Source: a virus
Lineage: Duplodnaviria > Heunggongvirae > Uroviricota > Caudoviricetes
Virus record (IMG/VR): IMGVR_UViG_3300029104_000146
Coordinates: 1 to 4,656 of that record
Strand: one strand, 5' to 3'
DNA: 4,656 nt
Under the pieces are notes generated by a model. That model ran no database searches. It worked only from the letters and a program-made list of their open reading frames with translations, and was not told where the DNA came from. How positions within the stretch are numbered: position 1 is the stretch's first letter; the number at the start of each line of letters is the position of its first letter. Of the stretch, positions 1-4,656 are shown piece after piece. The position numbers and the translations under genes are program-made.

Positions 1-82
1 ACCCACCAGCCATATTAACGCCATACAAACGGATTAAAAATGCCAGCAATGGCAGGGATTCGTACAACCTTAAAATAGTAAT

Positions 83-86
83 GAGG
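83..86 (+). promoter_or_regulatory. Shine-Dalgarno (GAGG) for the 846-aa gene
   Basis: GAGG lies 7 nt upstream of the ATG at 94. Confidence 0.55.
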
Positions 87-93
87 TTTATCA

Positions 94-2634
94 ATGAGCA
101 CTGATAAAGAAACTTTTGCACTATATTGCGAAGCAAAAAATGACAAGGTCAGAAAACGCCTTGGGATTAAAGGTGGTTTTTACTGGACTACAGCAAAAAA
201 ATTATCTGTTGCCATCTCCCGCTGCATTACCGCAATGGATGATAATGATTATGACGAGGACGACTTTAAAAAACCTGTTCGCGTCCATTTACCCGTTGTG
301 AATGACCTTCCTCCAGAAGGCGTGTTTGATACTGAATTCTGCAACCGTTACGAAAAAGGCGGGGAAGATGGTATCACAATGATATTTATAGCTCCTTCCC
401 CTTCAGCTCAGGACAAACCTGCCAGCACTGACAATACCAGCAGCGAAGCTGTTACAGGTGTCAGCCGTGACTGCGATGAACAAAGTGACTCTCAGACAGA
501 GAACGCAGATAAAAGCGAATCCCCGGACAGCAACGATGACTGCCCTGAATGTGAAATCCCCGTCTCCACCCTGAGTCTTACCCATCGCTTCCTGCACCTC
601 TACTTCTTTGGTCAGGAGTTCGACGAGAAATACAAACATCACGCCACACCAGAACAACGCAAGGACGTGATCCGCATCGAAATGGATATGGAAGATGGAA
701 ACATACAGAGCCTGCTTACTGCAGTACGTTCGCATCCTGAGCTGGATAAGCTGACAAACCATCATCTTGGAAGACTGGCGCATTCGGTGGAAAAGGCATT
801 CACTCACGCAACAACACGCCGTATCAGCCCGGCAGAATTCGACAAGTTCATTTCCACCTGGATGAAGACTGACTACCTTGATCAGGGGCTGTTGACAAAA
901 GAGTGGGCAAAGGGAAATTGCGTATCTGAAATCAATCGCACCCCGTCCGGCGCTAATGCTGGCGGAGGAATTCTTACCGATCGCGGTGAAGGTTTTGTCC
1001 ACGATGATGCGTCAGTGGAACGTGACGTTGCCGCTGGCGTTCTGGCCCGTTCAATGGACATCGATATTTACAATCCACATCCGGCACACGCCAAACGCAT
1101 TGAAGAAATCGTTTCAGAGAATAAGCCGCCCTTTTCTGTTTTTCGTGACAAATTCATCGCCATGCCTGGTCACCTGGATTATTCCCGCGCGATAGTAGTT
1201 GCGTCCGTGAAAGAAGCACCAATTGGTATCGAGGCTACTCCCCACCGTGTTACCGAATATCTGAACAAAGTACTGACCGAAACCGATCATGCCAACCCTG
1301 ATCCGGAAATCGTGGATATTGCCTGCGGTCGCTCCTCTGCCCCTATCCCGCAGCGTGTAACAAAAGAAGGAAAACAGGATGATGAAGAAAAACCGCAGCC
1401 ATCTGGCGCAATGGCAGATGAACAGGCAACGACTGAAGCAGTGGAACCGGATACAACTGAACATAATCAGGACACGCAGTCGATGGATGCTCAGCCACAG
1501 ATAAATTCTGTTGATGCGAAATATCAGAAACTGCGTGCAGAACTCTATGAAGCCAGGAAAAACATTCCCCCCAAAAATCCTGTCGATGCAGATAAATTAC
1601 TGGCTGCTTCTCACGGAGAATTTGTTGAAGGGATTAGCGACCCGAATGATCCAAAATGGGTGAAGGGGATTGAAACCCGCGATTCGGTGAACCATAACCA
1701 GCAAGAAACGGAACAGAAAGGCCATAAAGCGGAACAACACAGTCCAAATGCGCAACAAAACGAGCCAGAAACGAAACAGCCTGAACCAGTAGCGCAACAG
1801 GAACCGGAAAAAGTCTGCACAGCCTGCGGTCAGACCGGCGGCAACTGTCCTGACTGTGGCGCGGTGATGGGCGACGCAACATACCATGAGACATTCAACG
1901 AAGAAAGCCAGGATGAAGCCCGGGAAAAAGATCCGGAGGAAATGGAAAGTGCCGGACTCCCGAACAAGGAGTGCACCGAAGGCGATCAACATGCCAATGG
2001 CAATAATGAAACAGGCGAGACAGCAAATCTCTTAATTAAGGTGAACGGTCATCGTGAAATCACATCCACCAGCAGGTTGTGGCACCATCTGATGATTGAC
2101 CTTGAAACAATGGGCAAAAATCCTGACGCACCAATAGCCTCAATAGGCGCTGTATTTTTCGATCCACAAACCGGAGAGCAGGGGCCTGAATTCAGCAAAA
2201 TAATTGATATGGGTACATGTGGCGGCACTGTCGACATAAGCACAATCGAATGGTGGCTGGTACAGTCCAGCGAGGCCAGAACTGCAATTTTGGTAAATCA
2301 AATCCCATTAGATGATGCGCTGCTGCAACTCAAGGAATTCATCAGCGAGCATTCAGATGAAAAATTCGTGCAGGTATGGGGCAATGGTGCAACTTTCGAC
2401 AACGTGATTTTACGCCGTTCATACGAACGACAGGGTATCCCCTGCCCGTGGCGCTACTGCAACGATCGCGATGTACGCACAATCGTTGAGCTGGGGAAAG
2501 CCATAGACTTCGATGCCAGAACGGCTATTCCATTCGAAGGTGAGCGCCATAATGCACTTGATGACGCTCGTTACCATGCAAAATACGTTTCAGCTATCTG
2601 GCAAAAACTGTTCCCGAATCAAGCTGATTTTTAA
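94..2634 (+). CDS. RecE (exonuclease VIII)-like prophage protein with C-terminal DEDDh 3'-5' exonuclease domain
   Basis: Uninterrupted 846-codon ORF with an SD. The N-terminal ~570 aa resemble, from memory, the dispensable N-terminal region of Rac RecE (e.g. [93 protein letters not shown]). The C-terminal 180 aa carry DEDDh motifs: Exo I MIDLETMG, Exo [15 protein letters not shown], Exo [16 protein letters not shown]. Position is immediately upstream of xis-int. Confidence 0.85.
2092..2631 (+). other. DEDDh (DnaQ/oligoribonuclease-like) 3'-5' exonuclease domain, residues 667-846 of the 846-aa protein
   Basis: D669-x-E671 (MIDLETMG), D769 (TFDNV), H819-x4-D824 (HNALDD) followed by YHAKY. Spacing and order match the DEDDh family as in E. 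coli Orn (WIDLEMTGL ... H-x4-D). Confidence 0.7.
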
Positions 2635-2638
2635 TGTT

Positions 2639-2654
2639 CAACCGTCGCCGGTTG
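2639..2654. repeat. Perfect 6-bp inverted repeat CAACCG-N4-CGGTTG in the intergenic region between the RecE-like gene and xis
   Basis: Read directly: caaccg tcgc cggttg, starting 5 bp after the TAA stop at 2632-2634. No T-tract follows, so it is unlikely to be an intrinsic terminator. Function unknown. Confidence 0.5.
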
Positions 2655-2683
2655 TGGTTGGTATTCTGCAACTGGCGCGTTCC

Positions 2684-2687
2684 GGAG
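2684..2687 (+). promoter_or_regulatory. Shine-Dalgarno (GGAG) for xis
   Basis: GGAG lies 8 nt upstream of the ATG at 2696. Confidence 0.5.
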
Positions 2688-2695
2688 TGATGGTC

Positions 2696-2965
2696 ATGAG
2701 CGAACAGTACCTGATTACGCTCGACGAGTGGAAACCTAAGCGGTTCAGTCTCCCAATAACAAACACTACCCTGGTGAAATACGGAAAACTTGGATACATC
2801 GTTCCAAGACCACAAAAAATTCGTGGGCGTTGGCTGATAGATCGCCGAGCAGTATTTGTTGGACCTGGTGAAACAGGAATTGCGCCGGAAATTCATACTG
2901 GCGATGATGATGCACTGAAGGAGATTTTAACTCATGTCACCGAGGCCACGAAAAAACAGCACTGA
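2696..2965 (+). CDS. xis: Excisionase (Xis-like winged-helix recombination directionality factor)
   Basis: 89-aa product MSEQYLITLDEWKPKRFSLPITNTTLVKYGKLGYIVPRPQKIRGRWLIDRRAVF... parallels lambda Xis (YLTLQEW ... RRWVRE ... REYLFHESAV). Lies immediately upstream of int and overlaps its start by 32 nt, as in lambda. Start chosen at ATG 2696 because of the GGAG SD; ATG 2690 and GTG 2687 are in-frame alternatives. Confidence 0.7.
   Translation: MSEQYLITLDEWKPKRFSLPITNTTLVKYGKLGYIVPRPQKIRGRWLIDRRAVFVGPGETGIAPEIHTGDDDALKEILTHVTEATKKQH
2918..2923 (+). promoter_or_regulatory. Shine-Dalgarno (AAGGAG) for int
   Basis: AAGGAG lies 10 nt upstream of the ATG at 2934, inside the xis coding sequence. Confidence 0.5.
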
Positions 2966-4052
2966 CATAGCCGGACTTTACGAAAAATTTGATCGCAGAA
3001 CTGGCAGAGTTTACTACCAGTATAAAAACCCTGTGACTGGAAAATTTCACGGGCTCGGAACAGACAAAGGTAAGGCAGAAAAAATCGCTTCCACAGCCAA
3101 TCAGCGAATAGCTGCAGCAGAGGCTGAATATTTCATGCGCAAAATTGATGAAAGTCCGTCAGCAACAAAGCGTCGGGGTATCAGATTAAAGGCATGGGTT
3201 GATCGATATCTGAAAATACAGGACACGCGACTGAAAAATGGAGATATTGCAGCTACAACCCACAAAGAAAAAGTGCGAATGGCTGCATACCTGGTTTCCC
3301 GCCTGGGAAACCACCCATTGAAAGAACTGGAGGTAAGAGACTTTGCATTAATACTGGACGAGTGGATGGATAAAGACATGGTCAGCACAGCAAGAGTAAA
3401 TCGCGGATTATGGGTTGATATTTATAAAGAAGCACAGCATGCAGGGGAAGTTCCTCCTGGATGGAATCCTCCGGAGGCTACCCGTAAACCGATCCCTAAA
3501 GTGACCAGATCCAGACTCACCCTGGAAGACTGGCAAAAAATTTACAACGCAACGCCTGAAAAACACTTTATCCGTAACGCAATGCTTCTTGCGATTGTTA
3601 CTGGTCAGCGCCGTGATGACATTTGCCACATGCGTTTTTCAGATGTGTGGAACGAACACTTGCATATCACCCAGGGAAAAACCGGAATGCGTCTGGCGTT
3701 ACCGCTTACACTACGCTGTGATGCCATTGGGATAACGTTAAAAGAAGTTATTGATGGGTGCCGAGACAGAATATTAAGTCCATATCTAATCCATAGTCGG
3801 CACCAGAAACAACCAAAGCCGATGAGTAAAGACAACCTGAGCGACTACTTTGCCAAAGCACGGGATCTGGCTGGGATAACTCCACCAGCAGGAAAAACTC
3901 CGCCAACATTTCATGAACAACGCTCTCTATCAGAACGGCTGTACCGTGCACAGGGTATCGATACAAAAACATTACTAGGACATAAAGTCCAGGCAACCAC
4001 CGATCGCTATAACGATACTCGAGGTCAGGAATGGGTTAAGTTGGTTATTTGA
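2934..4052 (+). CDS. int: Lambda-family tyrosine recombinase (phage integrase)
   Basis: 372-aa ORF. N-terminal arm-binding-like segment (YYQYKNPVTGKFHGLGTDK, cf. lambda Int YYCYRDPRTGKEFGLGRDR). Catalytic signature residues in the lambda order: R226 (VTGQRRDD), K249 (QGKTG), H327/R330 (TFHEQRSLS), H350 (LLGHK), Y359 (TDRYNDTRGQEW, cf. lambda SQYRDDRGREW). Confidence 0.93.
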   Translation: MSPRPRKNSTDIAGLYEKFDRRTGRVYYQYKNPVTGKFHGLGTDKGKAEKIASTANQRIAAAEAEYFMRKIDESPSATKRRGIRLKAWVDRYLKIQDTRLKNGDIAATTHKEKVRMAAYLVSRLGNHPLKELEVRDFALILDEWMDKDMVSTARVNRGLWVDIYKEAQHAGEVPPGWNPPEATRKPIPKVTRSRLTLEDWQKIYNATPEKHFIRNAMLLAIVTGQRRDDICHMRFSDVWNEHLHITQGKTGMRLALPLTLRCDAIGITLKEVIDGCRDRILSPYLIHSRHQKQPKPMSKDNLSDYFAKARDLAGITPPAGKTPPTFHEQRSLSERLYRAQGIDTKTLLGHKVQATTDRYNDTRGQEWVKLVI

Positions 4053-4115
4053 CAAACACCATATGGAATATCCGTCACCATCTCAGGAAAAAAGTGTTGT
4101 AAAATGCGTGGCCTA

Positions 4116-4153
4116 GTTTTGGGGAAACGTTTTGGAGAGATTTTGGAGAAAGG
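4116..4153 (+). repeat. Three tandem direct repeats TTTTGG(G/A)GA at about one helical turn spacing; candidate arm-type (P') integrase binding sites
   Basis: TTTTGGGGAAACG (4117-4129), TTTTGGAGAGA (4130-4140), TTTTGGAGAAAGG (4141-4153), with unit starts 13 and 11 bp apart. They sit 65-100 bp downstream of the int stop, where lambda has P'1-P'3. Assignment as Int arm sites is an inference. Confidence 0.4.
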
Positions 4154-4205
4154 AAAAAATTGAATAAATTCAAAATCCTGAAAGTGTCCCGCCTTATGAA
4201 TAAGA

Positions 4206-4211
4206 AGGTGG
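4206..4211 (+). promoter_or_regulatory. Shine-Dalgarno (AGGTGG) for potC
   Basis: AGGTGG lies 7 nt upstream of the potC ATG at 4219. Confidence 0.55.
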
Positions 4212-4218
4212 AACTCGA

Positions 4219-4656
4219 ATGATCGGTCGACTGCTTCGCGGCGGTTTTATGACCGCTATCTACGCGTACCTGTATATCCCAATCATTATTTTGATTGTGA
4301 ACTCCTTTAACAGCTCGCGCTTTGGCATCAACTGGCAGGGTTTTACCACCAAATGGTATAGCCTGCTGATGAACAACGACAGCCTGTTACAGGCAGCACA
4401 GCATTCACTAACAATGGCGGTGTTTTCGGCGACGTTTGCTACGCTTATCGGTTCACTGACGGCAGTTGCGCTGTACCGTTATCGCTTTCGCGGTAAGCCG
4501 TTCGTTAGCGGAATGCTGTTTGTGGTGATGATGTCGCCAGATATTGTGATGGCGATTTCTCTGCTGGTGCTGTTTATGCTGCTGGGTATTCAGCTTGGCT
4601 TCTGGTCGCTGCTGTTCTCGCATATCACCTTCTGCCTGCCGTTTGTGGTGGTGACG
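4219..4656 (+). CDS. potC: Spermidine/putrescine ABC transporter permease PotC (5' portion, 146 codons; continues beyond the window)
   Basis: Translation MIGRLLRGGFMTAIYAYLYIPIIILIVNSFNSSRFGINWQGFTTKWYSLLMNNDSLLQAAQHSLTMAVFSATFATLIGSLTAVALYRYRFRGKPFVSGMLFVVMMSPDIVMAISLLVLFMLLGIQLGFWSLLFSHITFCLPFVVVT matches my recollection of E. coli PotC essentially residue for residue. Hydrophobic membrane-spanning character and a good SD support it. No stop before the window end. Confidence 0.85.
   Translation, partial: MIGRLLRGGFMTAIYAYLYIPIIILIVNSFNSSRFGINWQGFTTKWYSLLMNNDSLLQAAQHSLTMAVFSATFATLIGSLTAVALYRYRFRGKPFVSGMLFVVMMSPDIVMAISLLVLFMLLGIQLGFWSLLFSHITFCLPFVVVT

Follow-up and report, generated by a model that had tools for sequence, protein, structure and literature searches.

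The DNA stretch analysed here, positions 1-4,656 of the virus record IMGVR_UViG_3300029104_000146 (IMG/VR; Caudoviricetes), is 4,656 nucleotides (nt) long and is called the window below. Its single long open reading frame (ORF) lies at positions 94-2634 on the plus strand, begins with ATG and encodes a protein of 846 amino acids (aa). We confirmed that this ORF joins the N-terminal two-thirds of RecE, known from the Rac prophage, to a 3'-5' exonuclease of the DexA/Rv2179c type. The start codon is preceded by a Shine-Dalgarno-like motif, and the start call of the Prokaryotic Genome Annotation Pipeline (PGAP) at the Escherichia coli GE3 locus, which comes from the closest complete genome and is 95.7% identical across the full window, agrees. 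The features that define the fusion are given below; conservation was counted over 234 scaffold-fusion proteins, and the catalytic pentad was matched to that of DexA (exonuclease A) of phage T4 by multiple alignment.

83-86, +: Shine-Dalgarno-like GAGG, 7 nt 5' of the ATG (sequence inspection)
94-2634, +: full ORF, RecE-type N-terminal scaffold and C-terminal DEDDh exonuclease (profile and pairwise searches)
863-2036, +: DNA-level homology to Rac recE, 79.6% nt identity; aa 257-648 correspond to RecE aa 213-591, and the modules meet at the 3' end (K-12 Rac region, blastn; BLASTP)
2083-2601, +: DEDDh 3'-5' exonuclease domain, aa 664-836, PF16473/DexA family (Pfam, AlphaFold2, Foldseek)
2098-2106, +: Exo I motif D669-L-E671, corresponding to DexA D7/E9 (D kept in 233 and E in 231 of the 234 fusions)
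2398-2400, +: Exo II aspartate D769, corresponding to DexA D119 (kept in 232 of 234)
2548-2565, +: Exo III motif H819-x4-D824, corresponding to DexA H186/D191 (H kept in all 234, D in 233)

The relation of the N-terminal part to RecE was evident from profile and pairwise searches. Pfam reported PF06630 (Exonuc_VIII) at aa 57-196 (E 4.3e-12), and aa 1-648 aligned to positions 1-602 of the 877 positions of the NCBIfam exoVIII model PRK09709 (NF007259). The score of 853.8 bits missed the equivalog threshold of 1269 because the final third of the model was unmatched. With BLASTP, aa 58-648 aligned to residues 50-591 of K-12 RecE at 56% identity, which rose to roughly 80-90% from about aa 262 (our estimate from the printed alignment); aa 1 to about 57 and aa 100-155 were poorly conserved. 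BLASTP against K-12 RecE gave no alignment past RecE residue 591, and the DNA homology to Rac recE found by blastn ended abruptly at window position 2036. The nuclease domain of RecE has been placed at residues 564-866 (2023 review), and Pfam located the PDDEXK domain of K-12 RecE at residues 615-850 (PF12684, E 4e-28). The junction is therefore situated in the acidic linker directly before the nuclease. Pfam detected no PF12684 or other PD-(D/E)XK match in the 846-aa protein, whereas K-12 RecE was positive in the same test.

Between aa 664 and 836, the C-terminal part matched the entire PF16473 model (Rv2179c-like 3'-5' exoribonuclease; positions 1-177 of 177; E 2.9e-66), scoring 222.9 bits against a gathering cutoff of 27. 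An AlphaFold2 model of aa 655-846, built with 38 homologues, had a mean predicted local distance difference test score (pLDDT) of 90 and a predicted template modelling score of 0.87. When this model was compared with the PDB using Foldseek, 166 matches were returned at E<=1e-3, the best being T4 DexA (8kel; E 4e-11, template modelling score 0.75). Further matches included DnaQ domains as well as RNase T, oligoribonuclease (Orn) and REXO2, the latter three at E values of about 1e-8 to 1e-7; none of the Foldseek PDB matches was a PD-(D/E)XK protein. DexA was also the sole match in a sequence search of the PDB with the protein, in which the RecE nuclease was not matched. Three pairwise comparisons gave a ratio of nonsynonymous to synonymous substitution rates (dN/dS) of 0.16-0.18 for the domain. 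By every sequence and fold comparison made, the protein is assigned to PF16473, and the DEDDh domain is predicted to adopt the DnaQ/RNase T-type (RNase H-like) fold.

These results bear on an earlier note, made from the sequence alone, which had described the ORF as a RecE-like region of about 570 aa followed by a DEDDh exonuclease in place of the canonical PD-(D/E)XK nuclease. The replacement of the nuclease was borne out, since profile, pairwise, structure-prediction and fold searches agreed: the separate profile searches yielded a RecE N-terminal match and a PF16473 DEDDh match and no PD-(D/E)XK match, and we encountered neither a PD-(D/E)XK fold nor an N-terminus unrelated to RecE. The five residues that the note had named (D669, E671, D769, H819, D824) were located exactly as it had placed them. 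The RecE relation of the first part likewise held (PF06630, PRK09709, BLASTP), but its boundary had to be moved, as the similarity reaches about aa 648.

The window protein thus shares with RecE (Rac, K-12 b1350; nuclease structure 3H4R) the N-terminal stretch of about 600 aa including a four-cysteine (Cys4) ribbon and the acidic linker. Both genes lie late in a lambdoid early-left operon, after a cell-division inhibitor gene. The window protein differs in lacking the PD-(D/E)XK (PF12684) 5'-3' double-stranded DNA (dsDNA) exonuclease, in place of which it has a DEDDh domain of opposite polarity. Also, no recT follows the window gene, whereas Rac has a recE-recT pair. A true RecE orthologue was considered and rejected on the absence of the PD-(D/E)XK domain and of recT. 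The protein is not a member of the RecE equivalog: its N-terminal region agrees with RecE, but it has no PD-(D/E)XK domain, scores below the curated cutoff and lacks a recT partner.

The scaffold was modelled with AlphaFold2 over aa 1-660 (m900f298c87be) and consists of the following parts.

94-393, +: domain A, aa 1-100, small alpha/beta, pLDDT about 93 (AlphaFold2; dN/dS 0.04-0.11)
394-555, +: acidic Ser-rich linker, aa 101-154, predicted disordered (pLDDT below 50 at aa 102-149; composition)
556-1353, +: core domain B, aa 155-420, mainly helical, pLDDT 80-95
1504-1611, +: conserved helices, aa 471-489 and 499-506, with a conserved motif next to them (AlphaFold2, alignments)
1816-1857, +: CxxC-x6-CxxC putative zinc ribbon, C575/C578/C585/C588 (common to Rac RecE and gp06 of phage POCJ13)
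1861-2055, +: acidic linker joining scaffold to nuclease, aa 590-654, predicted disordered (pLDDT below 50 at aa 590-650)

A second stretch of predicted disorder separates domain B, the best-conserved scaffold part in distant relatives, from the helices at aa 471-506. The four cysteines may form a zinc ribbon, as their spacing suggests; the segment was modelled with low confidence and is missing from more divergent fusions. The 600-residue N-terminus of RecE has been termed a domain of unknown function (2023 review).

How the scaffold is combined with other modules was examined in a census of the best 149 representatives from a library clustered at 50% identity, which gave the following architectures.

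scaffold with DEDDh domain: 17 of 149
scaffold with PD-(D/E)XK domain: 11 of 149
scaffold with short conserved tail: 6 of 149
scaffold without detectable C-terminal module: 30 of 149, many of them fragments
DEDDh domain without scaffold: 85 of 149

Fusions just 33-44% identical to the window protein retained both domains in this library, and the fusion is therefore old and stable. The tailed class is exemplified by gp06 (682 aa, scaffold-only) of Shigella Stx phage POCJ13, which occupies the same early-left operon position. Its gene is 80.7% identical in DNA over ORF nt 1-1589, and P0241, the 50%-identity representative of the scaffold-only class, is 78% identical over window aa 1-648. Instead of the nuclease domain, gp06 ends in a tail of about 45 aa ('..W.RQL..AA..GLCANPAC..'); gam-like, RecT-like and lambda-Exo-like genes come next (L014:4001-7810). 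The gp06 protein is annotated 'exonuclease VII/VIII' despite having no nuclease domain. Judged from these sequences, the scaffold is a shuffled module whose C-terminal partner has been exchanged among PD-(D/E)XK, DEDDh and a short tail.

Exchange was also visible between close relatives. The window and GE3 are near-identical at nt 443-2076 and strongly divergent at nt 1-442 and 2077-2500 (synonymous divergence, dS, about 0.7). This sequence pattern indicates recent intragenic recombination with breakpoints close to module boundaries. Domain A, where the GE3 mismatches are concentrated (nt 1-442), is a divergent, exchangeable module. Among 5426 complete E. coli genomes, none matched the DEDDh allele of the window at more than 88.5% nt identity.

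Stand-alone relatives of the DEDDh domain, 53-63% identical over its whole length, are abundant in enterobacterial prophages, and the domain was matched in 1352 phage records. Such proteins, for example those of phage Bas106 (gp31) and Serratia phage OS31 (gp03), differ in having no N-terminal scaffold; the OS31 copy occupies the same slot as the window gene, directly before xis-int. In Bas106 (L008:3319-5859), the stand-alone exonuclease, 60% identical to the window domain, lies within a P22-like recombination module with the order Erf-like annealase, SSB, endonuclease, exonuclease and Abc2 anti-RecBCD. A Rhodobacter phage carries a stand-alone homologue between a Cas4-type exonuclease and a DNA polymerase.

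The fusion proved to be common. DNA of the DEDDh segment was found in 4057 of the 5426 complete E. coli genomes (75%), at 8052 places and up to seven times per genome, while the Rac RecE nuclease segment was found in 1736 genomes of the same set. DEDDh is therefore the commoner partner of the scaffold in E. coli. Records of E. coli phages, Stx-converting ones among them, contain the fusion as well. At least 8000 protein clusters at 90% identity were returned for it; among the matches listed, all 120 carried the precomputed architecture PF06630+PF16473, and the named clusters were nearly all from E. coli, with one from Citrobacter farmeri. Several PHROGs families cover the fusion, and the database names in use are 'exonuclease', '3'-5' exoribonuclease' and 'exodeoxyribonuclease VIII'. 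Our literature search found no paper describing the scaffold-DEDDh fusion. Because databases already list this architecture under a name, the window protein counts as one more allele of a family that is known but unstudied. The idea of a nuclease swap on a conserved scaffold, put forward in the earlier note, is thus supported, but the product is far from odd: in E. coli this form is in the majority, commoner than RecE itself, and it is unstudied rather than strange, with canonical RecE as the minority partner of the scaffold.

The remaining genes of the window show that a lambdoid prophage is inserted beside potC and that the window covers its integrase end.

2696-2965, +: excisionase, the next gene (PHROG 629, E 5e-26; Pfam Exc; the GE3 annotation agrees)
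2934-4052, +: lambda-type tyrosine integrase (Arm DNA-binding and catalytic domains), marking the prophage end
4219-4656, +: host potC, 5' part

No annealase gene lies between the exonuclease and xis. Genes xis and int share 32 nt (2934-2965), and the int stop and the potC start are separated by 166 nt (4053-4218), in which only short weak repeats were found. The junction of prophage and host (attachment [att] site near the potB 3' end) must lie within 4053-4218. Rfam and repeat scans of the window gave nothing relevant. As a promoter of the gene's own, one weak sigma-70-like site was seen at 49-76, against 5.1 expected from shuffled sequences, and such a promoter was accordingly rejected.

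The wider operon was read from related loci. In GE3, the early-left operon runs DicA-like repressor, DUF1391, dicB, ydfD (DUF1482), exonuclease, xis and int. Three further loci have this order: one in an O157:H7 prophage, one in strain 23CRST022 and one on a plasmid. From repressor to int, the annotation of these four loci contains no annealase, in contrast to the recE-recT pair of the Rac prophage. The annealase-free early-operon position extends to the Qin remnant of K-12, where the counterpart slot is occupied by ydfE, a pseudogene interrupted by IS2 (L004:5079-5999). K-12 YdfE was considered as a direct homologue and rejected, as it has no BLASTP similarity to the N-terminus of the window protein. 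YdfE instead matches residues 1-256 of an 823-aa DEDDh fusion (L006:5080-7551) at 99.6% identity, and this fusion has only aa 337-846 of the window protein in common with it. The N-terminal module of the 823-aa fusion is unrelated to that of the window protein and has no PF06630 match, and so represents another N-terminal variant.

On balance, we lean towards the interpretation that the gene is an intact member of a very common early-operon gene family of lambdoid (Qin-like) prophages, with a predicted role as a 3'-5' DNA-end exonuclease and a scaffold that would act independently of the nuclease. The operon dicB-ydfD-exo-xis-int would be expressed upon derepression or induction of the left operon of the prophage. 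Using two-metal-ion catalysis, the enzyme would then remove nucleotides wherever a 3'-OH end is free. Its substrate would most likely be DNA, in the form of 3' tails, flaps or linear ends, and it would serve to process or scavenge phage DNA ends without a dedicated annealase. The scaffold may contribute a function common to RecE and independent of the nuclease, such as targeting, assembly or end-tethering. DNA is preferred over RNA as the substrate because DexA and EcD, an E. coli prophage exonuclease of the same family, are DNases and because stand-alone homologues occur in DNA-metabolism contexts. Of the two roles proposed in the earlier note, DNA-end processing is accordingly the better supported, and turnover of RNA or oligonucleotides the less so, the nearest characterised relatives being DNases. 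The argument that the opposite polarity rules out a recombination role was judged too strong.

Several points weigh against this interpretation. The scaffold-DEDDh fusions are known as predicted proteins and models, and neither the choice between DNA and RNA nor the end preference can be read from sequence. The fold search with the scaffold matched no solved structure and gave no functional clue. RNase T, Orn and similar DEDDh enzymes accept DNA and RNA alike, and repression of the operon in the lysogen is assumed from the dicB operon of Qin. Rv2179c, the founding member of PF16473, has been described as an exoribonuclease. That the gene is so widespread in E. coli, cryptic prophages included, could just as well mean a benefit to the host, for example in defence.

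Defence is the alternative that survived best. DexA and EcD have been reported as 3'-5' DNases (Kang et al., NAR 2025, PMC12153337). EcD is reported to degrade T4 DNA containing 5-hydroxymethylcytosine (5hmC) while leaving unmodified dsDNA intact, and to protect cells from T4 (PMC12153337). The proposed recognition of 5hmC involves a Trp (DexA W152, stacking) and an acidic residue (DexA D169), and activity is said to be confined to modified DNA when the tetramer contact of DexA D90 is lost, as in EcD with its Ala (PMC12153337). By analogy, the window gene would encode a prophage-borne anti-phage nuclease of the 'HREX' type that digests modified (5hmC or similar) DNA of T-even-like phages from 3' ends and spares host DNA, with the scaffold adding targeting.

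The comparison required the EcD gene ('HREX', GenBank HAK9828821.1), which we located through an exact match of the published forward primer in E. coli genomes. The EcD-like gene lies in a P2-like prophage of E. coli S19-651 (L012:5989-6570) and encodes a 193-aa '3'-5' exonuclease'. A match of the reverse primer in viral contigs was single and was rejected as spurious. Compared with the S19-651 genome, the reverse primer as published contains one additional A (GAAACATATGA vs GAACATATGA). This extra A would create an in-frame stop and is therefore probably a typographical error in the table of the paper or an allelic difference.

The window domain resembles both proteins. DexA (PDB 8KEL/8KEN) also belongs to PF16473, is the best fold match and has an identical DEDDh pentad, but it is only about 27% identical to the window domain and is a stand-alone protein of 227 aa from a virulent phage, with extra loops, whereas the window domain is fused to a 650-aa scaffold. 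EcD, another PF16473 protein, is closer: its identity to the window domain is 39% over 185 aa (E 1e-37), and it has the same domain start ('NHLMID.ET.G') and is prophage-encoded in E. coli. This kinship, together with the reported activity of EcD on T4 DNA, favours a defence role, as does the occurrence of a gene near the att end of prophages in three-quarters of complete E. coli genomes, in up to seven copies.

The residues proposed to confer 5hmC specificity point the other way. Equivalents of DexA W152 and D169 are missing in the window protein: the position of W152 is C789 (2458-2460) and is W in EcD, and the position of D169 is K802 and is E in EcD, although the alignment near D169 is less certain. 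At the position of the D90 tetramer contact, the window protein has D741 where EcD has Ala. As far as aligned residues can predict, the protein does not agree with the 5hmC-specific HREX state at any of the three positions. Asp occupied the D90 position in 229 of the 234 fusions, and position 789 was Y, T or C in 222 and W in five. The Trp of DexA W152 was kept in 74 of 125 stand-alone homologues, a systematic difference between fused and free forms. Context also argues against defence: the gene stands behind toxic dicB in an early operon, and the promoter-like match at 49-76 is no commoner than in shuffled sequences. EcD differs in that it has about 190 aa, stands alone and is encoded by a P2-like prophage, and no PADLOC model matched the fusion. 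We therefore regard a defence nuclease as unlikely. The kinship to EcD, as a proposed anti-T4 defence exonuclease, nevertheless gives the fusion possible relevance to phage-phage competition.

Less probable still, and in our view quite improbable, is an exoribonuclease or oligonucleotide degrader (Rv2179c-, RNase T- or Orn-like) that trims RNA 3' ends or clears short RNA or DNA oligonucleotides during phage development. The Pfam family is named after the M. tuberculosis exoribonuclease Rv2179c, the fold search included RNase T, oligoribonuclease and REXO2, and the NCBI name is often '3'-5' exoribonuclease'. However, that name was taken over from the Pfam name and is not assay-based, the best characterised structural and sequence relatives (DexA and EcD) are DNases, and both the genes nearby and the scaffold to which the domain is fused are part of DNA metabolism. 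That the gene is a functionless RecE gene stripped of its nuclease, decaying as a mosaic remnant in a cryptic prophage, is hardly credible and was rejected on purifying selection and residue conservation: despite the IS2-cut pseudogene ydfE in the K-12 slot, frameshifts in some copies and the lambdoid mosaicism visible at the locus, the 846-aa ORF is intact, dN/dS is 0.04-0.18 across the folded domains, the catalytic residues are near-invariant across 234 proteins, and the fusion is kept both in lineages just 33-44% identical and in Stx-converting and other E. coli phage records.

The preferred reading, a DNA-end exonuclease on a scaffold with a function of its own, has consequences for RecE. 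RecE/RecT is a workhorse of recombineering, and full-length RecE performs better than its truncated form in linear-linear recombineering. One scaffold with three alternative C-terminal ends makes the function of the RecE N-terminus experimentally approachable, as nature provides 'swap' constructs. The scaffold is paired with a nuclease of opposite polarity or stands nuclease-free beside gam-recT-exo, which argues for a role independent of 5'-3' resection and of RecT. More tentatively, and with more doubt than confidence, we propose that the N-terminal stretch of about 600 aa of RecE is an autonomous platform indifferent to its nuclease, which lambdoid phages would join freely to a PD-(D/E)XK nuclease, to a DEDDh nuclease or to neither. 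What the platform does (for example end tethering, engagement of a host complex, or assembly of a machine for recombination or host takeover) would depend neither on RecT nor on resection polarity, and the DEDDh fusion would have a major but unrecognised part in the DNA-end metabolism of prophages or in inter-phage exclusion. At the level of annotation, some genes called 'exodeoxyribonuclease VIII' in phage records and E. coli protein clusters do not encode RecE-type enzymes, and such annotations should therefore not serve to infer a RecET system.

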